A stretch of DNA of 64,000 nucleotides from Protoeuglena noctilucae (taxonomy: Eukaryota), in assembly GCA_958009085.1 (NCBI GenBank), contig OY253679.1:558001-622000 (forward strand). Reading direction: 5' to 3'. Positions within the stretch are counted from its first letter, which is position 1, and each line of letters opens with the position of its first letter. Under the pieces are notes generated by a model that saw nothing but the letters and a program-made list of their open reading frames with translations, did not search any database and was not told the origin of the DNA. The translations under genes and the position numbers were made by a program. Positions 22,929 through 62,276 of this stretch are shown here, piece after piece.

Positions 22929-25900
22929 ATGGAGCAGGCATGGGGAGGCACATCGCTGCCGTCGACCGCTGCGTCGTGCGTGACGGGATGCCCACGAGCA
23001 GAGATTCCGACGCCTTCTGCTGCGAACGGGCCCCGTGCGCACGCGTCGTTGGGTGCGCAAGCCCGCTTTACCTGGGAGGGCTTTTTGGAATCCACTGTCC
23101 CCCGAAGCGCCCTTTGCAGGAGCGTGGGGCCACCGGGCTCACCGGAGGCGCAAGGTCCGTGGGGTCGCCTGGCCAAGAACACGTCGAGCGGGCACCCGGA
23201 CCGTTTCGGCGCGTCGACCAAGCCGTCCGACGAGGGCTCCATCAAGCCCCTCGCGACGCGCGCGTCCGGTGCGCCTTCCCGCTTCTCGTCCACGCATTTC
23301 TCGGATGGCACCCCGGTGCACGGCCCCGCGGGCGCGTGGGAGCCGACCCACAAGGCCCGGCGCCGTGCCGTCGGGAAGGACGTGCTTTTGGAGCCCCTCA
23401 GGTGCCGCCCGCCTCTGCGACAGCGCCCGCCCTGCCGGATACCCAGCTGCATCGATCCAGGCTTCCAACGCCGCGGGTCCGGGCCCCCGCATGATCCAGA
23501 ACCGCGCCCCCTTCGTGCGCTGCAGGCGGCAAATGGCGGGGCCAGTGCTGGTGGACGATTCGGGAGATGAGGCAGGGGCCGACGACGAGGGTTCGGACGC
23601 CGAGGGCGCCAGTCACGGCTCCGCGTCGGACATCCCGGACGAGCGCAAGTGGCTCGTGGCGTCCCTGACGTCGTCGTTCCTGTTCAGCGACATGCGCCAC
23701 CGGTGGCTGGTGCGGGTGGCGTCGCTCATGTCCCGCGCGGAGCTGTCCGCGGGGACGGAGATCGTGCGGCAGGGCGACGAGGTGGGCGACGCGGACTGCA
23801 TGTACGTGGTGGGCGAGGGCCTGGTGGACGTGGTCATCTTCGGGACCCTGGACGAACTCCAGCGCATCCTCGAGGGCAACCCGGAGGCGGAGCTGGTCGC
23901 GGACGGTGGGGACCCGCCGCAGTACTGCCTCCGCTTCTCCCGGGGCAAGGGGACCATCCTGGGGGACTCTGGCCATGGTGTTCATCAGTCCCCGGAGCGC
24001 GTCAATGGTCGCACGCACCGGTGAGGGGATTCCTGATACATACCGTGACAACATCTGATCGACGAATGAGATGGTTTTGTGAACACGCGTGTCATGCGAG
24101 ACGTGGGACGCAGGCCTGTCGCAGGGCCGCGTTCGCATGCCCATCGCCCACTGTGCCGCGCAGCGAGTCGACCCTGCAAGCTTCTCCCTCCCTGCAGACT
24201 GCACCCTGTGGACGCTCACCAAGAAGGACTTTCACAGGGAGGTCGCGCCCCGTGCGCCCTGGATGCGCCTCCTGCACTTTGCGCGACGGGTGCCGTTCTT
24301 CACGGGCGTGACGGACGCGGAGCTGCTGGGGATCCTCACGGGCACCTCCCAGGAGCATTACGCGGACGGGGACCTGATCATCCAGAGGCGAGTGGGGCCG
24401 GAGCTGCAGCTGTCACGCTTGGCCAGGCACTGGCGGGGCTGTGATGGACTGGCAACCACTTGCGCTGTGCTGGGGGCGGTGCGTGAGGGCTACCCGCCGC
24501 ATACGGTGCCACACGGTGTGTGACAGAGGTTACGGGGCCAGTCACGCGCGCGCTGATCTCCTCGCAGGGGCATGAGGGACGAGAAGGTGTATGTGATTCG
24601 GCACGGCATGGTGGGCGTGATGGGGGGCGACGAGGGCGGGGAGCCGCGGGAGGTCATCCGGCTCGGCAGGGGCCACGTGATCGGGGAGCGCGTGCTGATC
24701 GGCAGCAGCATGCGCACGGCGGACTGCGTGGCCCGGGGGGACGTCACGGTGCTCGTGCTGCAGAAGGCAGACATCCTGCGCGTCGAGTCGCCCATCTTCG
24801 AGTGGATGCTCGACTACGAGATCCTACTCAGGTGAACGGGACTGCCGGGATTGCTCGCTTTCTTTTATGCTGCCACGCTGTGCCTGACGCACGCCCGGGG
24901 TCAGGTAGGCGGACCTGACCTCGCCAGATCTCACCCAGCGTCATGATCCTCGCGGTCAGGGATCCGATAGGCGCTTACCAAGCATGTGGTGAACTCCCGC
25001 TTGCCTTTCCATGCCCGCAGTGTCGTGCGTCGGTCGGCGTACCTGAGTCGGTTTGACCTAGAGGGGACGCTGGACGAATTTCAAAGAGAGATTTACACGG
25101 AGGGGACGCAGGTCATGAAGGCGGGCGAAGTGCCAAGCCGCGTGTGGGTGCTGCGGACGGGGGAGGTGTCCGCAGAGGACGGGGAGGTGAGGGTGGGCGT
25201 GTGCTGGGAGTGTTGGGGAGGTGAGGGTGAGGACCTGCTAACACTTCCCACTCTTTGCCATGAACCAGCACGTTTTGCGAGCTACATTAGCTACGAGAGC
25301 GCTCTGGTCTCCGATCGCAGGGCAACTTTGTGGGCGTGGAGTACTTCGACTTGCCGTACGGCTTCGTGGTGTTTGGGGGCGGTGACGAGCCATCCCCGGT
25401 GACGGTGCGGGTGGCCACGGAGACGGCGGTGCTTCTGTCGATTCCTAACCCAGAGCTGGGGGACAGGGCGGGGGTGGGGGAGGACCTGCAGGAGGACGCG
25501 CGGCGCATCGTCGAGGAGCTGGCCAAGATACCCGCGTTCCAGGTGACGCATGACCTGATGTGGTACCAGGAGGGGTTGTGAGTGAGGCAAGCATGGCAAC
25601 GTGCTATGACTTGTCGAGCATGCTGCAGCGTGCTGTGAGCAGGTGAGCGTGACTCTTGCAAATGTAAACGCACCGGGCCACTCCTCTCTTTGCCCATGCA
25701 CCGCTGCCCAGCCACCCTCCCATGCCCAAGCGTCGCCTCTCTTGCCTTGCCCTCGCAGATGCTCCCCGAGGCGGTGCGCCGCAACCTGCAGGGCCTGAGC
25801 GCCTTCGCCAACCTGGCCTCGCTGCGCCTGGGGGAGGTGGTGTACCCCGAGGGAGCACCGATGGACGCGGCCATGACGGTGCGGTCGGGGGAAGTCGAGG

Positions 25901-27635
25901 TGCGCTACCCCAACGGAGAGACGGTGCTGCTGGGGCCGGGGTCGGTGTACGGCGTCACGGGGGTGCTGGAGGAGGCGCCAGAGCATGAGGCCAAGGTGGT
26001 GACGGTCAGCACGCGCGCCGAGGTCGTCTTCGTGCTTTATCAAGACGTGGTGCAGGGCCTCGAGGCCATCCTATCGAGGGTGAGTCGCGATGTCATGCGT
26101 AATGCGCTTCACAACTGCGTGGTGGCAGGATCGCATTGGGGCTGTCATCCGGTGCTGGCGTGTGACAGCGCGGCGGCGCGTGGCACGTTGCGGTGCTGGA
26201 GAGGCACCTGGGCCATATTAAGCGCCGCCATGCCTTTGCTTTTCTGCAGCTCAACGAGTCGGGGGAGGCCCTGGAGGCCGCGATCGCCCCCGACCTGGAG
26301 TTGTTTGGGGAGCTGGGCGCGGGGCAGTTCGGGAGCGTCCGGCTGGTCCGCAAGCCCCGCACGCGCACGCTGAACGCCCTCAAGGTCATCTCGAAGGCCG
26401 CGGTGTCCGAGCCCAAGCAGCTGGAGCACCTTCAGAACGAGGCCCGCATCCAGGAGGAGCTGCAGAGCACGTTCTGCGTGCGGCTGGTCGAGAAGGCCCA
26501 GGATGACGCGTCGCTGTACCTGCTGCAGGAGTTCGTGCCCGGGGGAGAGCTCTTCTATCTGCTAGACGTGGCGGGAGCACTGAAGGAGAATGACGTTCGC
26601 TTTTACGTGGCGAATGTGCTGCTGGGCCTCGAGTATTTGCATTCCAAGGGCATCGTGTACCGGGACCTGAAGCCGGAGAACCTGCTGGTAGCCGCGGACG
26701 GGTACGTCAAGCTGGCCGACTTTGGGTTCGCCAAGAAGGTCCACGGGGGCAAGACGTACACCATCTGCGGCACGCCGGACTACCAGGCGCCCGAGGTGAG
26801 GCGCAGCGAGGTGCTGAGAGGCCAGGTGATACCCGGTGTGCAGCATGCGTGATGCTAGTGATACCTGTGGTGTGACGCTGAAAATCCGCAACTAACACCC
26901 GCCACCCCTGCCGCCCCTCCCAGGTCATCATGCGCAAGGGCACGAGCGCGGCTGCCGACTACTGGGCCCTCGGCGTGCTCATCTACGAGCTCCTGTCGGG
27001 GGATGCCCCATTCAAGGGCGCATCGGAGGACCCCTGGGAGACGTTCCGTCGCGTTCTGTCCGGGCGCTTCTTTATCCCTCCCTTCATGGGACCCCTCGCC
27101 GCGGACATCATCTACAAACTCCTGCAGGTCAACCCGGACCAGCGTCTGGGGTCGGGGCCGGGAGGGGCGGCGGAGGTGCGTGTGGGGGGAGCGTGCGTGG
27201 GGTGGCTGCTGGGTCAGGGAGCTGGGTCCGGGGAGAGGGGCGCAGTTAAGATCCACACCACCACCGTCGCTGTCGCCGCCCTCACGACCCGCAGTACGAT
27301 GGTCGCCCTGCTGCCGTCTCCCCGCCCCTCTGCTCGCCCACTCTCACCGATCTTCCCTCCGTTCTTCTTCGCAGATCAAGCAGCACCGGTGGTTCAGCGG
27401 CATCAATTGGAAGGCCTTGGAGCAGCACCGCGTGCGCCCGCCCTTTGTGCCCGACGCCAAATTCATACAGAACTTCATCGGGCTCAAGTCCATTCGCCTC
27501 GACGCCTTCCGCAAGTCGCGGGCGCCCAAGAGCGAAGGCGGAAAGCCCGCTGTCGCCGACATGGAGGGCTGGCGGTGGCTGGAGGGCGTAGAGGACCGCA
27601 GCCCCTCCCCCGGGGCGCATGTCAGCAATTTCTGA
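22929..27635 (+). CDS. Cyclic-nucleotide-dependent AGC kinase (PKG-like): pseudosubstrate, four CNB domains and kinase domain; +1 frameshift in CNB-A as given
   Basis: KARRRAVG; IVRQGD..MYVVGEG..LAMVFISPRSAS; GERVLIGSSMRTADCVA; LGAGQFGSV, ALKVISK, IVYRDLKPEN, KLADFGFAK, TYTICGTPDYQAPE, IKQHRWF..PPFVP; start uncertain. Confidence 0.88.
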
Positions 27636-33700: not shown

Positions 33701-36700
33701 ATGGCCGCAGAGCCCCCGCTGACGCCGCGGTTCGTGAGCAACAACCCCGATGACTCCGAAATGATCGTCAGCCTGGCCCCGCTGGACGGGTGCCCCGACG
33801 ACGACAACAGCCGCGAGATCCGCGTGTCGTGCCCCGATGCGACCGGGCTGGGATGCGACCTGGCCCGCGAGGTGACACGGCGCGCCGCTGCCCGCTGGCT
33901 GCGTGCCGGGGCCCTCTTCGCCATCTCTGCGCTCCGTGCTCGGCGCCTCGCCCGCGCCCCTGCGTCCATGGCCCCCACACATGCCCGACCGCCCCGTCCT
34001 CGCCGCAGATCCTGAACTTCGGCCTCCGCATCATCCGCGGCGACTTCTCCACCGACGGCAAGTGGTGCTTTTTAATTTTTGAGGTCCGCGTGGGCCGCGG
34101 GTACCGCCCCTACTGGGACCGCCTCAAGCGCCAGCTAGAGCGCTGCTGCCCTAAGGAGGGCTCTGCGGGGCTGCAGCAGATGTGCGCCAACCCCAGCGCC
34201 CGGAGCTCCCAGCTCTTCGTGCTCCAGGTGCGTTGCGAACTGCATCACCGCGCACGCGCCTCCCGCCTGCCTAGCCGCGGGACCGGTGTCGATCCCATCC
34301 ACCCTGGTCGTGTCGCGTCGCAGGTGACCACGAGTGACCGGTCGGGCGTCCTGCACAACCTCATCAGCACGCTGTGGGAGTGCGACTTGCAAGTCCACAA
34401 GGCCCACATCACCACCAACCCGGGCGACCAGGCCCTGGACATGTTCTGGGTGTCGGACAACCGACAGGAGTTACCGGTGCGTGGCGAGAGCCGCGTTGCG
34501 TCACCTGCTGGCCGCAGTGCGCTTTTCATCGACTGGTCTTGCCTCTTATCGACCAGCTGGCCCGTGCTCATTGGCGAATAGCCCCTCTCTCTCATCATTG
34601 ACGAGTGCTCTCCTCATCTCCATGCAGGCCCTGGAGCGGATGCTGGACATCCGGGACCGCGTCAAGGCGGCCCTGGGCGAGCAGTCGAGCTGTCACCTGG
34701 AGACGGTCGCCCCGGAGGACATGCCGGACCTGGACGCCCGCGCCGTGCGGCTGGCGTGCAAGGATGCGAAAGCCCAGGACCCCCTGCGCCTGCACAAGGC
34801 GTCGCCGAGCGGCCCGGGCGCCCCCACGCACCGCCACCGCCGCACCGTGAGCCACGAGATCGTGCAGGAGGTGGGCCTGCTTCCCCTGGACAGCGTCGAC
34901 ATCGTGGTGGACAACTCGACCTCGCGGGAGCACACGCTCATCACGATCGCCTGCCGCGACCGCAAGGGCCTCACCTACGACATCATGCGCGTCCTCAAGG
35001 ACCAGGAGGTCCGCATCGCCTACGGGTGAGGGCTGCGGGGGGCCAAGGAATCCCACCAACCACACGAGGGCATGGCGACCGAGAGCGCCGCTGGGGTACA
35101 TGTAGATGCTTCACGTATCACTACTCAGCATAGCTTCCTTCCGTTTTCTCTGACGCGCAGTCGCATCGGGACGGACGACATGAACCCCACGGGGGTGGTG
35201 GTGGACCTCTTCCTGCAGCAGGAGTTCGAGAGCTGGGGCATCTGCGACGAGGACCTGCTGGAGGACCTGGTGGAGACGCTGCGCACGGCCATCGCCATGC
35301 CCGTCACCATCACCATCACGGACGTCTTCGACGGCGCGTGCACCCAGGCAAGCTGGGAGGGCGTTTGGGCACGCACGCCTGGTAGCAGCCGCTGCGTGCG
35401 GGGGCGACCGAGCGCATCCATGCTTGCCGCGGCCGTGGCGGACAGGATGGGCAGGCTGCGATTCACACGCATTTCACAGCCTTACAACCTTCAACTTCCC
35501 TCCCCGCAGCTGACGGTGCGCGCGAGCGTGGACTCGGGCGGCCGTGGCCGCCCCCGCGTCATCTACGACACGACGCGCGCCGTGGCGCTCTGCCGGTGCG
35601 GCATCTTCATGGCCGACATGTTCATGGAGGAGGTGGGCGAGGACGACACCCTCATGGGCCCCCGCCGCGGGAGGCGCCGGGTGGAGGTGCACCGCTTCTT
35701 GATCCACGACGAGGAGGGCCGGCCGCTGCGGTCGCGGGAGCAGAAGCAGGTCCTGCTGTCGCACGTGAAGCACCAGATGATCGGGTGCGGCGACATGGCG
35801 TCCGTCGCGGGCCTGCCCTGCCTGTCCGAGGCCTACTCGCGCATCCACTCGGTCAACTCCTTCGAATCGGTAAAAGACTCGGTCGCATCGGCAGCCGGGT
35901 CCATGGCCCTGCTCAACCTCCCGGGGCTCATGGACGACGCGCCGAGCGAGCTCCGGGAGCGCCGGCCCAGCCGCCTCGGCCGCGTCTCGGGGGACCCCTC
36001 CGTGCACGCGGGGTCCGCGCCGCTGCGGGGTGGCCTCGAGGCCGGGTCGTCCTTACGCGTGTTCCTGGGGCGCTCGAGCTGGAGGGGCATCCGGGAGGAG
36101 GAGGGCGAGGGCGAGGACGGGGCCGCGGCCGCCGGGGCACTGGCGGGGAGCGTCGACGGGGGTGCCGAGTGGCTGCGCGGGGCCAACTCGGTGCAGTCGC
36201 CGCGCGTCCGCGGGGTGGCATCCGAGGCGGGGCCCCTGGGCCCCGTGCGGCCCAGCGTGAGCGGCGTGGAACGGTGGCTCATGGAGCGGGGAGAGGGCGC
36301 GTGGGCGGGGGACGCTCCGGGGGGCCAGCCTGGGCTCCTGGAGGGGACGCCGGCCTCGGAGGAGGAGGCGCGGCCCGCGGTGCCGGGGCCCTTGGACCTG
36401 CGCCGCGGCGACTCCGTGCCCAGTCCTTCCCAGGACGCCGCACGGCCCGAGGCCTCTGCCGGGGGTGACCTGGCGGGGGCAGGGGCGGCCGTGGAGGCTT
36501 GTCGGGATGGCGCAGGGGAGGCGGGGTGCGAGTGCGAGGGCGCGCTCGCGCACGATGGGGCGGCGGAGGCTGCGGCGGCCGACGGGGGCGCCTGGGAGCC
36601 TGAGGCGGGCCAAGTTGAGAGGGCGGCGGGGTTAGAGGAGGGGTCCGGGTCGAGCGAAGCTGCCGCAGTGGCAGACGACGCCGGGGCCGCAGCGGACGGT

Positions 36701-36910
36701 GCCGAGGGCGCGCCCGTGGGCGTGGCCGGAGAGCGCAAGCCCCCCGTGGACGAGGCGGACCTTTCGACTGAGGCGGGGTCGGAGGGAGGGTCCGACGTGG
36801 CGCACGGTCACCGCGAGAACGGCCTCCCCCAGGGCCCATCCGACGCGGGGGCCGTGAGCCGGGGCGTGGCGCAGGAGGGCGCACGGCTGGGCCGCGTGCG
36901 GGTGGTCTAA
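33701..36910 (+). CDS. ACT-domain-repeat protein, ACR9/ACR10 type, with a long low-complexity C-terminal tail
   Basis: IRVSCPDATGLGCDLAREILNFGLRIIRGDFSTDGKWC; DRSGVLH; VDNSTSREHTLITIACRDRKGLTYDIMR; GRGRPRVIYDTT. Confidence 0.9.
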
Positions 36911-48904: not shown

Positions 48905-51900
48905 ATGCCGGGGGTCCAGCGGGAGAGGGCCGCGGAGGACGGCGCCGGCGACGGCGGCGGCGAGCAGGCTAGCAACGGGGACGGCGAGCTGCTGAAACAC
49001 TTCTGGGACCTCTCCAGCCTTCACCACGATGAACGTCAGTCATCAGCGGACGCTCTCGTGGACGGCATCGCACGGTGCGCATGCCGGCAGAGCACGCGTG
49101 CGCGTGCAGCCCGTTGCGCGGCCTCGCGCGGGTCGCTCGCGGCTGCCGTGCGCGCTTTGTCCACCGTAGCTGGTAACGACTTTGCTGCCCCGCCGGCCAC
49201 TGACGCAGGGCTTTGGACGCGGCGGCCGATGAGAACGGAGCGCCCTCGCCGGCCGCTTCGGCAGCCGAGTGGCCGCCGGTGGTCGACTACAGCATGAAGC
49301 GGTTGCTAAAGGGTCTCGGGTCCTCAAACAAGGGCGCGCGGCAGGGCTTCGCGACTGCGCTGGCCGGGATGCTCCAGGCGATGGGGACAAGGGGCGCCCT
49401 GACCGTCGAACGTGCCTTGGAAATCATCAACGAGGCCCTTCCGACCGCGGGAGGCAACGCCAAGCGTGTGGATGTCCGGGTGCGTGCCGGAGCTCGCATG
49501 CCTCTTCCCCAACCATGCAGCAGGCCAGTTGCGCACGCATCCTGCCCTAACGCTGACATTCGTCAGCCCACGTGGCCTCCAGCCTGCCCCACCCTGACGT
49601 CATGCTGTGCATTTCACCCCGCAGGAAGCGTCTCTGGGCCGCCTGTTTGCCCTGGCCGCCCTGTCGCGCTCCGGGCTGCCACAGAGTGCCGGTGATGCTG
49701 AGGGTATCCTGGAGGGCCTGATGGCCGTGGCATCCAGCAGCCCCTTCCTGCGGGAAGCGGCATGCACCGCTGTCATCGACATGCTGCAGAGGTTGCCCGC
49801 AAAGGAGGCCACGCGTGCCATCGCAAAGTGTGGTCCCCTCAAAGAGATGCTTACAGCAGATGAAGAGGTGAGCCAACGGGGGCCAACAACGCCTGTCGCT
49901 GTAAGCACCAGCAGCTTTGGTTACACGCCATGTGTTTGTCCCCAGCAGTGCCCTTGGCCCTGGCACTCGCCCCCCACTCCATATGTCTCTCGCACCCCGT
50001 CTCGCAGTCACCCACCCCCAACCCCCAACCCCCAACCCCTCCTCTGTCCCTCGCAGTCGGCAACCCCGGACGCCCTGACCCTGGCCCTTTCCCTGTGGCC
50101 CTTGCTGCCAGAGGACGTCCTCTCTGCCTGCACCCTACTCCCCGCCCTGGGCCCCGAGGACCGACCCCCACTGCAGTTCATCACCCACGTGGGCGAGTGC
50201 CCGCACCCCTCCGAGGCATCCCGGGCTTTCTTCGATCGCTCGCACCTCCCCCGCGTGGCCGGGGCCCTCCGCGCGGCCTCCGCCGTCGCCCCCCGCGTCC
50301 ACTCCTGCTGGCTCGCGGCCGTGGCCCTCCTCGCGCCGGGGTTCCGCCCGCAGCCGTGGTCGGGCGGGCGCCACCGCCGGGACGGCGAGCGTCCCCGCGC
50401 CGGCGACCACCGCGAGGGCGATGTGGTGCCGGACGCACGCACGGTATCTCCGATGGACGCTGCCAGCCTGTCTGCTCTGTGGGAGATGGTCGTGGAGCAG
50501 CGGTTGCTGTCCACGGCCTCCGACGACCGCCACTCGCTGGCCTTCCACCTCTGCCAGCTGCTGCTCTCGAGGTGCCCCGCGGCATCGGCGCCCGTGCTCC
50601 TCAGCCGCCGGCTCCTCACTGTCCTCGCCACGCACCTGGCACAGCGGGACTCGTACCTCCACGGAGCAGCGCAGGTGGGGCAGGCGGCTGCACTGCGCTG
50701 GCATAGGCACAAGCGATGGCAGGCCTCTCCGCAATGCGTAGTCGGCGACGTGGCATTGTAATCGCCCGCTGTGAGCTCTTCTCTCCCACAGGCGCTGCTT
50801 TCACGGATCAAGTCGGTCGCATCCGGGGCAGCGGACAAGGAACTGCGTATCGCCATCCTGGTGGCGCTGCAGACCCATGGCGCTCACGGGTGAGTCGAAG
50901 TTTGGGTCGCGGGCATAGCCCTTTCCCTGTCATATACTGCTGCTGGCGTTTGGCAGGAACACCCCTGCACCTCGCTCTGCTTGGCTGTGACCCAGGTTTG
51001 ACGCCGCAGCCAAGACGACGGTGGCGTCGGAGCTGCTGAGCAGCGTCACGGCTGAGGACGTGGGGCATTACCTGGTCAGGCTGGAGGAGCTGTTCGTCTC
51101 AGAGGGGCTCGCGGCTGCGCGGGTCGAGGCGGAGGGAGCGGTGACGACGGCGGAGGATGAGGCAGAGGGAGACGAGGCAGAGACGGGGGGCGCGGCGGGG
51201 CAACACCGCAAGCGGCTGGTGAGGGTGCAACGGTTGGAGCATTTCAGAGTGGCGTACACTGATCGTTGTGGTTGTCGTGGTGCTATCACCAGTGTGCGTG
51301 TTCAGTCGCTTCAACTTGTGAGCATGTCTCTGCACTGCCGCAGATGTGGGCCGCGGACCATCTGGTTTCCGCCCTGCGCATGGACGGCGTGACTGCCGAG
51401 TCGAGGGACCACGTGGCGCGGCTGCTGGCGACGCACGCGTTTCTGGCAGCGGACCCCGCGAACCCCAAGGCCCTGGGGGCGGCGGTCAAGGCCGACCCGG
51501 TGCTCAAGGCCCTCAAGAAGCTCGACTGCCACAGGTGACAGGTTTACCTCGCATTCCTTATGCACACCACGCTTTTTGCAAGCTGACTGTTTACTCAGGG
51601 GTCACTGTGCTGGGGATGCGTCGTGAATGGGCCCAAGCTGCCAAATCACAGACGGGGCGATGATGCAAGAGCCTGCTTCGCTTGCTTTCTGCTTCAATCT
51701 TAACCCATATGTGTACTACATCATATCTGTGATCCTTGCAGGTCCGTCCGGGAGCACTGCGCGGGTCGCGTGCTGCAGCTGGTGGCCGAGGCGGGGCAGC
51801 CGGCACCGCAGGGGCAGGGCAACAAGGGCAGGAAGGGCGCTAATGCCGGGGAGGGTGAGGCGAACGGCAAGGGGGGCCAGAAGGATGGCAAGGGAGCTCC

Positions 51901-54900
51901 CGGGGACTGGCGGGCGGCGCGGGAGGCCCAGGTGGCAGCGCAGAGGGAGTGCATGGCACAGGTGCTGGGGTTCTGCGATCGGGCGCTCGCGGGCGGCGGC
52001 GTGGTGCTGGCGGCGTCCGTGGCGGCGGACGATCCCGAGGTGGCGGCGGGCATCGCGTCGTGCGTGGGGGCGCTGCGGGACGCGGGGGCCGCTTTGCGTC
52101 GGATGCCCGGCGACCCCCGCTGCGTGGCGCTGGCCCTGGTCGCGGACACGGCGCGCGTGTTTGCCATGGGCGCCCCGCACCTGATTGACCTGCGGGTGGG
52201 CGAGGACGTCTCTGGCATCGCGGCGCGGCTGGCGGGCAAGGGGTCTGGCAGCGGTGGCGGGGAGGGGCCGCACTGGTCGGAGGTGCTGGTCGACCTTTCT
52301 TTGGACCTCCTGTCCCGCGACGTGGCGCCCCTGCCGGGCGTGGCGCTGCGTGGGGCAGTGGAGGCGGCGGTCGGGGCATGCGCCGGGGACCTGACCTCCT
52401 CAGCCCTGGGGAGCCTGGTGGGCGTGCTGGGGCAGCCGGTGGGCGCCGAGGAGGACGGCAGCGACGGCGAGAGCGGGGAGGGCGAGTCTGGGAGCGAGGA
52501 CGGCAGCGAGGGGTCTGACGAGGGCAGCGATGCGTCAATGAGCGGAGATGAGGAGAGCGAGGGAGGGGCGGAGGGAGACGGGGGTCTCGGGGAGGCATTG
52601 GATCGCCTAAGGGAGCAGCGCGGGGCCGGGAGTGACGAGGAGGCGTCTCTCCCCGATGTGGACGACGAGGAGATGTTCAAGATGGACAAGGCGATCGGTG
52701 AGCGTGTGTGGTGGGTGTGACTATGACTGGGATGTTTAAGACGGACAATGCGATTGGTGAGTGGGATGAGGGGGTGTTACTGCACTAAGCGATGCCTGCC
52801 CACAACTCTGGCCATCGCCACCTACCCACCCATGCATGATGCCATGGGCACCCCATGCCAATAGATCTCGTCTCGCCCCATTGCAGCCGCCATGGTCAAG
52901 GACGCCCAGGACCGTCGCAAGGACGCCGTGCAGGCCCGCCGGTCCTCCCTGGCCCTCAAGTTCCGTGCCGCTGCGTTGCTCGACCTGTTCCTGGCCAAGC
53001 AGCCTGCGTCCCCGATGGTCCCCGGCATGGTCGTGCCTTGCCTGGAGGCCCTCAGGGCAGCTGCTATGCCCTCGGGGGACGCGCAGCTCGCCAAGCGCAT
53101 CCAGGTGCGGTGGGCTGAGTGGTTGCAGAGTGTGGGGTGCATGGGAAAGTGCCTTAGTGCGGTGGGCTGAGCGCATCTGATGCCCAAGCAACCGGGGTGC
53201 GTGCAAGGCATGACGGCATGATGCAGGCCTGCGAGCTCCATTCGCCCCCTTTACCGCAGGCCTTGATTGTGGAGCGCCTGTCGCGCGCCAAGGTGCAGAG
53301 CGGGGCGGGGCTGGACTTGGCCCAGGGGCAGGCGATGCTGCGGGCGTGCCTGGTGGCCGCCAGCCGCGCCCCGTCCCGGCAAGTCGCGGACATCACCGTC
53401 CCCGCCGCCGAGCGCCTCGTCAGCTACACTTTGCGGTGAGAGAGGGTCTGGATGAGGGTGCGAGAAGGAGGCGTGAGATGCGAACGGCCAAGAGTTTCGT
53501 GGGAGCGCCTGGCCGTTCCAAACAAGTGGAGCTAGACCATGGCAGTCCAGGTCAAGCACTAAGATGCGAATGGCCGGGCAATGAATTGCCTGGCCAATTG
53601 CAGCTGAGTGCTTGGCCTGGACTGCCATGGTCTAGCTCCACTTGTTTGGAACGGCCAGGCGGTCGCTCGCGCCATCCACCTGGCTCGTGATCCCGGGGCT
53701 TTCTTTCGCTTCAACACCTGTTGCAGCTGCTGTTTGCAACAGCACTACCCTCCCACACCCTCCTGCCAACAGGATCCTGACGCGCGTCCATTCGTCCGAT
53801 CCCAACGCCAAGCCGGATGTTCGCGAGGACGGGGTTGCCCTGGCCACCGAGGCACTGCGCCAGTCCGTCCAGGACTTCTTCAGCAGCAAGCGGACCGCCA
53901 TGCGCAAGTCGCTGTTGCTTAATGTGATCCGGGAGTGGGCCCCAGAGACGGGGGCCCTGCTGCTGCCGACGCTGATCAAGTTCGCATCGGAGGGCAGGCG
54001 AGAGAGCAGAAGCGCATTGTGTTGATAAGCCCTTTCCATGCACGAATCCGCTCGCGATGGGCGCTGTCGCAGCTCGCGTTGCAGGTACTTGGTACAGCTG
54101 TGTCGTTCACCCCTGCCTCCGATGCGCGTTGTCCCACCCCATCCGACCTGTGCATCCCTTCCCCTCACAGGAATGAAGTGAAGCGAGCTGAGGCTCTCGG
54201 CATGGTCGCCGAGGTGCTCTCCCGGAACCCCAAGCAGTATGGGGAGGTGAGGCATGCTGCGGGTGCTGTGGCATAGAGCACAGATGGGGCGCACGTGCCA
54301 GTGGTTGGCCTGTGCGGAGGCATCTCCGTGTGCAAGTCAATCATGACGTTGGTATCAGCCTACAGTCTCTCGTCTCTCACGCCGACCGGTGCTTAGCTGA
54401 CTTCCACTGCTCAAGCAACACACGGTGTTCAGATGACGATGATCGTTGCCTGCAGGCGGCGGCTCGGGAGGTGAAGCCCTGCCTGCCCGCGTTGGCCAAG
54501 GCGCTGGCCGCGGTCGCCAAGGGGGGATTTAAGTCGCCGCGGGTGCACGGAGACGCCCTGCAGGCAGCGGCAGATGTGGCGGCGCGCATTGCATCTGTGT
54601 GTGCCAGGCACGGGGCGGCCCTGGGCGTGGCAGAGAAGGCCGCCATCCTCGAGGCATGCCGGGAGGGAGAGGCACAGGCGAGGGCCGGGTAGAGGTGCCC
54701 TTGGGTGGCCTTGACCACAGCAGAGCAGTCCCCATCGCCGCTCTGACGTCATTAACCCGACCCGTCACAGTGCAAGCGACCCCCGGGCCACGCCACGCAG
54801 TGCTCAGTCACTGAACCTCGTTGTTTCCCACAGACCAACGTCTCTTCTCGCACCAAGACGATCCTCGCAAGGCTCACGGCGGTTCTGGAGGGCGGGGCGG

Positions 54901-60373: not shown

Positions 60374-60670
60374 TCAGGCTGCCGGCGCCGCACGCCGGCC
60401 CTTCCGCCCATTGGCGCGCTGCCCTTGCGCCGGATTCACCTGTGTGAATTGCGAGTTGCGCGCTTGGTGTGTCACCTACGCCATCCGCGCGCAACAGGGG
60501 CGAGGATCGGCAGAAAGGACGCAAATCGCGTCACAACCGCGTGCCATGGGCTGCAGCGTCGCTTGGCTCGCCTGCCGTAAGACGAAATAGTTACGCACGA
60601 CGACCACAACGAACGCAGCAAGGGCGAAGAACTTGAGCGCGGTCGCTAGGTTCGCCCAGGACCCCCACAT
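60374..60670 (-). CDS. Small single-pass membrane protein (54 aa if spliced), directly upstream of the TBC1D19-like gene
   Basis: ATG 60670; exon 60572-60670 MWGSWANLATALKFFALAAFVVVVVRNYFVLRQ; donor CAG|GCGAGC; acceptor cacacag at 60440; exon 60374-60439 VNPAQGQRANGRKGRRAAPAA*. Confidence 0.55.
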
Positions 60671-61017
60671 CGGACGGTTTCTTCGGACTGCGGGCGTGCA
60701 CGCCGCGGTCCAGTCGGGACCCTGCCTGGGTGAGCTGCCCAGACGCCAGTGCCGACTGACTCGAGGCGTCAGCTCGGGATGGCGTCGCCGCTCGTCGCGA
60801 GAACGAGATGTAAGAACACGCCAGAAGCTTTTGGGCAAAGGCTGTTTCGCTGAGACGCGGGGATGGAGTTGTTCATTCTCCCCTGCACCTGGTAGGGCCT
60901 GCGGATCGACTACAGGCTGCATTCCGTGCGCGAGCTTCAAGGTCGCTCAAGTCCGGTCGAGTTCCAGCCCCGGCCGGGGCCCCGACGCTGCCGTCGGTGG
61001 CGCCCGTCGTGACTGTG

Positions 61018-62276
61018 ATGGCGACAAAGGAGCAGCGCATTCAGGATGCCGTGACCATCCTCAGCCAGGGCACCAAGGCCCACGTCCACACAGGCACGCC
61101 TCGCGCCCCAGCACATCGCGTGTGGGCCACCGCCGGACTGCACGTGCCGGGTCCGTGCACATCAACGCCTCATGTGCAGCGCACACGCGCCGCTCGACTC
61201 TGTTACCCGCCCCTGCGGCCGCAGAGCTCGATGAGGACGACACTCCCCTGGTCTTTATGTTCGTCGCGCCTCCCCCGAACGAGATACTGTGTCCGATATG
61301 CCTCGACATCATGAAGGACGCGGTCATCACGCCGTACGGGCACAGCTACTGCCAGAAGTGCGTCTCCAAGTACGCATCGACGGCCGGCCTGTGCCCCCTG
61401 ACCCGCAAGCCTCTGGCCGAGGACCAGCTGACGCCCAACCTCCTCGCGCGCACGATTGTGGACGAGATGGAGGTCTTCTGCCCACACGGGATCAAGCTGG
61501 GTGCGTGGCTGGTGCGGCGAGCTTTGAAACGCGGGTGGAGCCACGGGCGTCACCTCTGCGGTCTTGGTTTTGCAGGAGACAACGGTTGGGTCGAGGACCC
61601 GGACGGCTGCACGCAGAAGATCAAGTTCGGCCTGCGCAAGCCGCACCTGCTGACCTGCCTGCACGCCAATGTCGAGTGCCCCGCCGGGGGCCAGCGCTGC
61701 GGGCCCATCGCACGCATGGGTGAGTTTCTCTTCGACAAGCCCGCCGCCGCCCTCCTGCCGGATGCTCCCGGGGAGTTTGCTCCAGCAAGACGTGCCCGAG
61801 CAGCGCTGTGTCACAGCCCCATGTCGGCCCGCCGTGTCGCGTCTGCAGATGTGGATTTCCATCTGGAGGAGGAGTGCCAGTTCTCGGGGCGCAACAAGAC
61901 CGAGGAGGTGTCGGAGAACTACGTGCGGGCCAACACGACGCTGCAGCTCTTCGGCGTGTCGTTTGTCGTCCTGGCAGCCTTCCTGGTCCTCCTGTTTCAA
62001 ATGGGCGTCCTCCGAGATTCCATCAGGTGAGGTTTCTTTTAATGTCCAGACTGTAGAGCGGTTGGCTCGCATTTGGCGCTCCTGCTGGGAGCAGTCGTGG
62101 CTTGGCCTGCCATGGTCAGGCCAGGCAAGCGACACGTTGCCTCCCCGACCCCGCATCGCAGCCGCGTCATCTGGCCCATCGTCGGTCTGCTGAGCATCCC
62201 CGCCGGAGTCGTCGCCGCCGCCGTCCTGCTGGAGGGGCGCATCGTGGATGCAGAGTTCGCGGAGAAGCTCGAGTGA
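61018..62276 (+). CDS. RING/U-box-like and TRAF-type zinc-finger protein with two C-terminal TM helices (putative membrane E3 ligase)
   Basis: CPICLDIMKDAVITPYGHSYCQKC...CPLTRKPL..LTPN; HLLTC..VECP..C...HLEEEC; hydrophobic LFGVSFVVLAAFLVLLF and IWPIVGLLSIPAGVVAAAVLL. Confidence 0.8.

Follow-up and report, generated by a model that had tools for sequence, protein, structure and literature searches.

An intron of a POL5/MYBBP1A-like gene in Protoeuglena noctilucae carries a near-perfect inverted repeat, which we located at 53506-53661 in a 64,000-nucleotide (nt) stretch of the forward strand of contig OY253679.1 (GCA_958009085.1, positions 558,001 to 622,000). The whole stretch is hereafter called the window, and all positions are counted from its first letter. 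The repeat can be extended to 53498-53669 (156-172 nt), and our analysis confirmed that it is genuine and far beyond chance. The hairpin that it encodes is transcribed solely within the host pre-mRNA, in an intron that is removed by ordinary GT-AG splicing. We read the palindrome as a young, single-copy local inverted duplication that is tolerated in the intron and is likely neutral, and we give this reading a probability of roughly 0.55.

Structure, authenticity and copy number of the palindrome

The palindrome and its parts are as follows.

53498..53669, no strand assigned: full inverted repeat with arms 53498-53582 and 53585-53669 (85 nt each, 89% complementary, 2-nt spacing)
53506..53560, plus strand: left outer arm, 55 nt, pairing with 53607-53661 through 54 Watson-Crick pairs and 1 G:U (pair-by-pair table)
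53607..53661, plus strand: right outer arm, 55 nt, partner of 53506-53560
53561..53606, plus strand: inner quasi-palindrome, more degenerate, with 22 pairs (17 Watson-Crick, 2 G:U, 3 mismatches)
53476..53490, plus strand: upstream motif copy AGATGCGAACGGCCA, its first 9 nt found again at 53562 and its last 9 nt again at 53649

An earlier sequence-only reading of this DNA had quoted the letters of 53506-53661 and had counted 54/55 paired positions in the outer arms. Both agree with our data, and the sole outer-arm G:U pair is 53552/53615. That reading had also stated that the apparent 46-nt loop folds further, which RNAfold reproduced, leaving at the apex a 4-nt loop (UGAA, 53582-53585). Its statement that there are three deviations, all of them G:U, was right about the G:U pairs (the other two are 53568/53599 and 53576/53591 in the inner stem) but overlooked three true mismatches in the inner stem (A.G 53561/53606, A.G 53564/53603 and A.A 53570/53597), so that 6 positions plus the apex are non-Watson-Crick. 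The outermost 8 pairs of the 53498-53669 repeat are degenerate (5/8 paired). An inverted-repeat search of the window (12-nt seed, minimum 25 nt, maximum distance 600 nt) returned two pairs, and the palindrome is the sole long one; the other is 25 nt at 80%.

RNAfold on both strands, a check that the sequence-only reading had proposed, gave extreme stability on each. The sense strand of 53480-53690 folded at -169.6 kcal/mol (shuffles mean -80.1, sd 5.0; z = -17.9; 0/200 as stable) and the antisense strand at -157.7 kcal/mol (z = -19.2; 0/200 shuffles as stable). The computed RNA fold of the palindrome is an almost perfect stem of ~80 bp, and folding of 53498-53669 with DNA parameters gave -98.8 kcal/mol. 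The whole host intron (53436-53772) folded at -223.8 kcal/mol (z = -15.9; 0/100 shuffles as stable), with both splice sites located at the base of a single rod. The intron flanks without the palindrome gave z = -1.94 (10/200 shuffles as stable), and four neighbouring introns gave -0.2 to -1.0.

The G:U pairs had been used to argue for the sense strand. In this assembly the sense strand does carry all three, and they are worth about 12 kcal/mol in its favour over the antisense strand. Statistically, however, the argument is empty (3/3, P = 0.125, one-sided binomial). The orientation of the inner 64 nt cannot be fixed independently from 31-mer unitigs because the perfect outer arms (46 nt) exceed the word size.

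The sequencing runs that contain the locus are marine metagenomes and the cultured 'organism A'. In run X2 (DNA, a separate study), unitigs at the locus break exactly as expected of a true palindrome with 31-mers.

53150-53535: X2 unitig, depth 191.1
53506-53551: X2 unitig, arm only, depth 378.8
53522-53645: X2 unitig across the loop, 124 nt, depth 119.7
53632-54050: X2 unitig, depth 192.7

A metagenome from another sample, X8, contains the same 124-nt loop-spanning unitig, and 0 differences are listed. Depth of the arm-only unitig is 2.0x that of the flanks (378.8 versus 191.1 and 192.7); therefore, a near-identical arm occurs only twice per genome, which amounts to one palindrome. Chimeric library molecules classically give rise to palindromes, and the sequence-only reading had raised the possibility of an assembly artefact. 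A chimeric inverted join formed during assembly or amplification is nevertheless very hard to reconcile with an identical loop-spanning unitig in a different study and another sample, with an arm depth at the twofold level that a true palindrome predicts, or with an unspliced contig from RNA library X10 (53235-53534) that reads from the exon into the left arm. Unless the data sets share a systematic error, the X2 and X8 unitigs together with the arm depth exclude it, and we regard its probability as negligible.

The depth of the loop-spanning unitig in X2 (119.7) is below that of the flanks (~191), whereas in X8 centre and flanks are equal (4.7); no alternative joint is listed. The low central depth in X2 could stem from under-representation of self-complementary fragments in the library, or from a subpopulation whose palindrome centre is different.

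Searches for further copies gave the arms themselves. With up to 3 mismatches, the 34-nt arm core has two matches in the window, and both are the arms (53518-53551, plus strand; 53616-53649, minus strand). For the arms, blastn at word size 7 found nothing in the window better than 18/20 at 62098-62117 (E = 0.03). The intron flanks and the whole intron returned self-matches in the window plus two 20-nt matches (15400, E = 0.43; 62098, E = 0.06). Exact searches with a 20-mer of the arm returned 0 matches in JGI metagenome contigs and 0 in IMG/VR viral contigs; diverged copies are invisible to such searches.

The match at 62098-62117 lies in a 27-nt near-palindrome centred on CCATGG (62097-62128; GCTTGGCCTGCCATGGTCAGGCCAGGC), just 3' of a RING/U-box open reading frame (ORF) at 60591-62027. 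This near-palindrome has GCTTGGCCTG and CCATGGTC in common with the right arm (18/20, E = 0.03-0.06). The likeness is probably due to chance in GC-rich DNA, because a genome of ~28 Mb would yield many such matches.

Host gene and splicing of the intron

The host gene, the exons next to the palindrome-bearing intron and the neighbouring introns are listed below. The neighbouring introns were delimited from the loose ends of a contig of run X9, a metatranscriptome, and from the sequence.

49598..54692 at least, plus strand: host gene, DNA_pol_phi (POL5/MYBBP1A-like), multi-exon, with a TAG stop at 54690-54692; Pfam PF04931 on exon ORFs
53436..53772, plus strand: host intron, 337 nt, GT..AG, phase 2, from an RNA contig joint that skips 337 nt and from frame continuity
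53260..53435, plus strand: exon 5' of the host intron, from an X9 RNA contig that continues into upstream exon sequence, and from the reading frame
53773..53997, plus strand: exon 3' of the host intron, from the X9 contig piece 53772-53998, whose loose end matches 54172 onward
52757-52886: intron of the same gene, 130 nt, GT-AG
53105-53259: intron of the same gene, 155 nt, GT-AG
53998-54170: next intron after the host intron, 173 nt, GC-AG (GCGAGA...CACAG), from the RNA contig loose end continuing at 54172
54247-54455: intron of the same gene, 209 nt, GT-AG

The assignment of the host to POL5/MYBBP1A in the sequence-only reading held up. PF04931 (DNA_pol_phi) matched the exon ORF 49598-50758 at 82.2 bits and the exon ORF 51950-52720 at 50.6 bits (cutoff 27.6), and the two ORFs are colinear with the profile.

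The contig of metatranscriptome run X9 aligned to 53257-53434 and 53772-53998 and joins 53435 to 53773 exactly. It skips exactly 337 nt, and therefore 53436-53772 is a real, spliced intron. The reading frame runs on across it, from ...ERLVSYTLR on the 5' side to ILTRVHSS... on the 3' side. Of the five introns delimited towards the 3' end of the gene, the host intron is the longest (against 130, 155, 173 and 209 nt), in line with the earlier statement that it is longer than most. Its stem begins 62-70 nt past the 5' splice site and finishes 103-111 nt ahead of the 3' splice site. Without the palindrome, 337 - 172 = 165 nt are left, a typical intron length for this gene.

X9 RNA contigs have no cover inside the host intron. 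The contig from RNA library X10 runs from within the upstream intron through the exon and covers the first 99 nt of the host intron. Unspliced pre-mRNA and carried-over DNA would both give such a contig, and the two cannot be distinguished at the level of contigs. The X10 contig stops in the left arm, where any unitig has to break, and the X9 and X10 contigs are uninformative on dicing.

Origin of the palindrome and competing readings

Non-Watson-Crick positions are unevenly spread along the palindrome (5/22 in the inner stem versus 1/55 in the outer arms; P = 0.006, Fisher). A short motif also recurs in and around it. The direct repeat AGATGCGAA(C/T)GGCC that the sequence-only reading had placed at 53476 and 53562 is present (13/14). 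The motif GAAYGGCCRGGC occurs at the arm tips (53507-53518, minus strand, and 53649-53660), in the inner stem (53568-53579) and upstream (53482-53493), with weaker versions in the inner stem at 53583 and 53588, and each arm is bounded by 10/13 inverted copies of it. All three exact matches to GAAYGGCCRGGC in 64 kb are within the palindrome. At up to 2 mismatches there are 46 matches in the window, 6 of those in 53482-53660, and no enrichment across the window (46 versus 52 expected; 79/100 shuffles had at least 46).

We suggest that 53561-53606 is an older short quasi-palindrome, composed of recurring copies of the motif, and that it nucleated a replication template switch or fold-back synthesis in place. 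One event would then have copied an arm into its perfect reverse complement, extending the palindrome outward. The single change in the outer 55 bp, against five in the inner 22 bp, fits such an outward extension of an older core in one event. We infer a template switch because, in passages of Monttinen et al. 2023 (PMC10710096), this mechanism makes perfect hairpins in one event; the same passages describe young products as enriched in sense-strand introns. In RNA, the stem would loop out 172 nt and leave an ordinary 165-nt intron for splicing, and the palindrome may be tolerated because of this looping out. It is probably near-neutral, although neutrality is an assumption on our part.

Other observations also weigh against a young and neutral local duplication. 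Word depth registers near-identical copies only, and the genome may contain family members elsewhere that differ by more than a few percent. The 10/13 motif bounds could mean that the palindrome is two head-to-head copies of a small unit bounded by terminal inverted repeats (TIRs). The three transition differences are all G:U on the sense strand, and this and the flank z of -1.94 are weak pointers to constraint at the RNA level. A search of JGI metagenome contigs for the orthologous POL5 locus, with the 74 aa of the downstream exon as query, gave 406 pattern stretches, 0 of which were confirmed by tblastn. The direction and mechanism of the origin are what we infer, because no orthologous or empty site was found in these contigs.

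One competing account is insertion of a transposon. A miniature inverted-repeat transposable element (MITE) or other fold-back transposon, or two head-to-head TIR-bounded units of ~75 nt, in a 165-nt intron would explain a structure that is nearly all inverted repeat, a remainder (337 - 172 = 165 nt) consistent with clean insertion, the 10/13 terminal inverted motifs on each arm and the 9-nt direct repeat GAACGGCCA at 53482 and 53649. TIRs are present, trivially so for any palindrome. The right copy of GAACGGCCA, however, sits inside the arm, and the palindrome boundaries have no target-site duplication (TSD): at the symmetric boundaries 53480-53511 we found 2-bp coincidences only (CA, CG, GC) and no direct repeat of at least 3 bp. 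Arm word depth is 2x single copy, which means two arm copies per genome, and dispersed copies were found neither in the 64-kb window nor in the metagenome and viral contigs (0 matches). These results disfavour the fold-back transposon that the sequence-only reading had offered as its alternative, and we consider such an insertion improbable. An introner was considered as well and rejected, as no other sequence in the window resembles the intron (64 kb searched). An RNA structure acting in cis for the host gene, for instance an intron-zipping stem for splicing or an RNase III site that tunes POL5 mRNA output, would draw on the splice sites lying at the base of one rod in the whole-intron fold and on flanks that are more stable (z = -1.94) than four neighbouring introns (-0.2 to -1.0). 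Valli et al. 2016 (PMC4817775) state that DCL3 directly cleaves hairpin-bearing mRNAs in Chlamydomonas. The signal from the flanks, though, is marginal (10/200 shuffles as stable), the four neighbouring introns are spliced in the absence of such a structure, and an 80-bp perfect stem far exceeds the need of such roles, so that we give a service to the host little credence.

The palindrome could instead be a functional intron-derived small-RNA gene, in which a Dicer-like enzyme would cut the stem from POL5 pre-mRNA or from the excised intron. The product would be a dominant 20-22-nt microRNA (miRNA) or phased hairpin small interfering RNAs (siRNAs), loaded into Argonaute and regulating targets in step with ribosome biogenesis. 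In favour of such a gene are a long, near-perfect intronic hairpin on the sense strand, transcription within an expressed and spliced gene, the ~12 kcal/mol by which the G:U pairs favour the sense strand, and the weak Rfam matches, which are all miRNA hairpin families. Criteria for plant and algal miRNA annotation include at most 4 mismatches opposite the mature species (PMC5511227), and the outer stem, with 54 Watson-Crick pairs and 1 G:U among 55, lies within that bound. Passages of PMC4817775 describe nine high-confidence intron-derived miRNAs in Chlamydomonas that depend on DCL3 and do not require splicing, their intronic stem-loops being diced independently of it. Against it, Rfam 15 gave five sub-threshold matches on the hairpin, the best being mir-4446 at 29.6 bits versus a gathering threshold of 79, and 0 families at gathering across the window; there was no snoRNA match in the window either, a class considered since the host is a ribosome-biogenesis gene. 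The G:U bias has P = 0.125, and no convincing complementary site was found in 64 kb (best 18/20 at 62098-62117, E = 0.03). In Chlamydomonas, miRNAs lack conservation even among members of the Chlorophyceae, and most of the young ones with long hairpins have low expression and are probably neutral (PMC5511227). We found no publication on small RNAs, Argonaute or Dicer-like proteins in the pedinophyte lineage, to which the closest named relative belongs (see below). The genome preprint of that relative, YPF701, contains 0 mentions of RNA interference (RNAi), Dicer or Argonaute, and passages of two Viridiplantae-wide surveys do not sample the pedinophyte class, although their supplements may list more taxa. 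On balance, a functional small-RNA gene of either product type seems unlikely to us. More doubtful still is the specific version in which a working intron-derived miRNA or hairpin-siRNA gene of a pedinophyte-like marine picoalga was newly born by template switching and is co-expressed with POL5. Dicer-like machinery, if the alga has it, would very likely process the stem to hairpin siRNAs or a 'proto-miRNA'. The hairpin is thus a possible source of proto-miRNA or hairpin siRNA, a candidate only, and we treat it as raw material rather than as a demonstrated miRNA gene.

Genomic setting and comparison with known systems

Neighbouring genes in the window include those for phosphoribulokinase, ACR-type ACT proteins, Psb27, NifU, CCT7, a fumarase-class lyase and a GLYR-like dehydrogenase. 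No RNAi component was found among the window ORFs scanned. At 25639-26849, an ORF with a cyclic-nucleotide-binding domain directly precedes a protein kinase domain ORF on the same strand, a pair suggestive of a cGMP/cAMP-dependent kinase-like gene. Plant-type ACR9/ACR10 ACT-domain modules (PF24914, PF24931, PF24926) are encoded by three consecutive ORFs on the plus strand at 33754-36907. These ORFs probably represent exons of a single gene for an ACT-repeat protein, which fits a green-lineage origin.

The GC content of the window is 67.4%. In the CCT7 exon, identity to Pedinophyceae sp. YPF-701 is 87%, and most other named green algae listed, including Chlamydomonas relatives, are at 76-82%. 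Judged by this exon, the closest named relative of this marine core chlorophyte is Pedinophyceae sp. YPF-701, not Chlamydomonas. The genome preprint gives 27.9 Mb and 70% GC for YPF701. The Chlamydomonas frame of the sequence-only reading was therefore set around the wrong taxon; it is still a useful analogy, and the background statement that introns are the source of many Chlamydomonas miRNAs is borne out by PMC4817775.

Long perfect sense-strand intronic hairpins are the raw material of new miRNAs and hairpin siRNAs. The locus described here is well documented, being real in independent DNA data sets, single-copy and in a verifiably spliced intron, and its lineage is little studied, with a compact genome in the relative (~28 Mb and 70% GC in the preprint passages). 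Should the alga possess RNAi, the locus would offer a convenient natural test of how rapidly new hairpins turn into small-RNA genes. Should it be without RNAi, an 80-bp intronic double-stranded RNA stem and a 170-bp DNA palindrome can persist harmlessly. Were the small-RNA reading true, the locus would hold the first small-RNA gene of an early-branching core-chlorophyte lineage and give the first evidence of active Dicer and Argonaute there, as well as a natural non-animal example of one-step miRNA birth. As it stands, this is a modest single-locus result, an instance of intronic proto-hairpins that leaves current understanding unchallenged.

Among known systems, the intronic pre-miRNAs of Chlamydomonas reinhardtii, such as cre-miR1157 in intron 22 of Cre12.g537671, share with the palindrome a sense-strand stem-loop inside a spliced intron of a chlorophyte protein-coding gene, and splicing and dicing are independent in that system, as passages of Valli et al. 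2016 (PMC4817775) describe. They differ in that C. reinhardtii belongs to a different green-algal class, and in that the palindrome, a candidate source of small RNAs, matches no Rfam miRNA family at gathering. Mirtrons, an animal system named in PMC4817775, are likewise an intronic hairpin source. Their hairpin ends are the splice sites, whereas the stem described here (53498/53506-53661/53669) is internal to 53436-53772.

MITEs and fold-back elements, together with the MITE-derived miRNAs of angiosperms (PMC9641971), resemble the palindrome in small size, near-complete TIRs and a long hairpin when transcribed. Unlike them, the palindrome showed neither a multi-copy state nor a TSD when both were tested. 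Introners are transposon-generated introns of marine picoalgae, in which the whole intron belongs to a repeated family and supplies a splice site. The likeness lies in the host alga, which is marine and GC-rich, and in an unusually long intron with repeat structure. The palindrome, in contrast, is internal to its intron and gives no splice site, it has no similar copy in other introns or elsewhere in the 64 kb searched, where no repeated family of the whole intron was found, and it is single copy by word depth.

The last comparison is with template-switch mutation (TSM) hairpins and the young primate miRNAs derived from them (Monttinen et al. 2023, PMC10710096). The host here is an alga, and the 55-85-nt arms appear longer than the short-range events stressed in the passages of that paper. 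Like the TSM hairpins in these passages, the palindrome has no TSD and is single copy, and the two are alike in perfect reverse-complement pairing that could arise in a single event.

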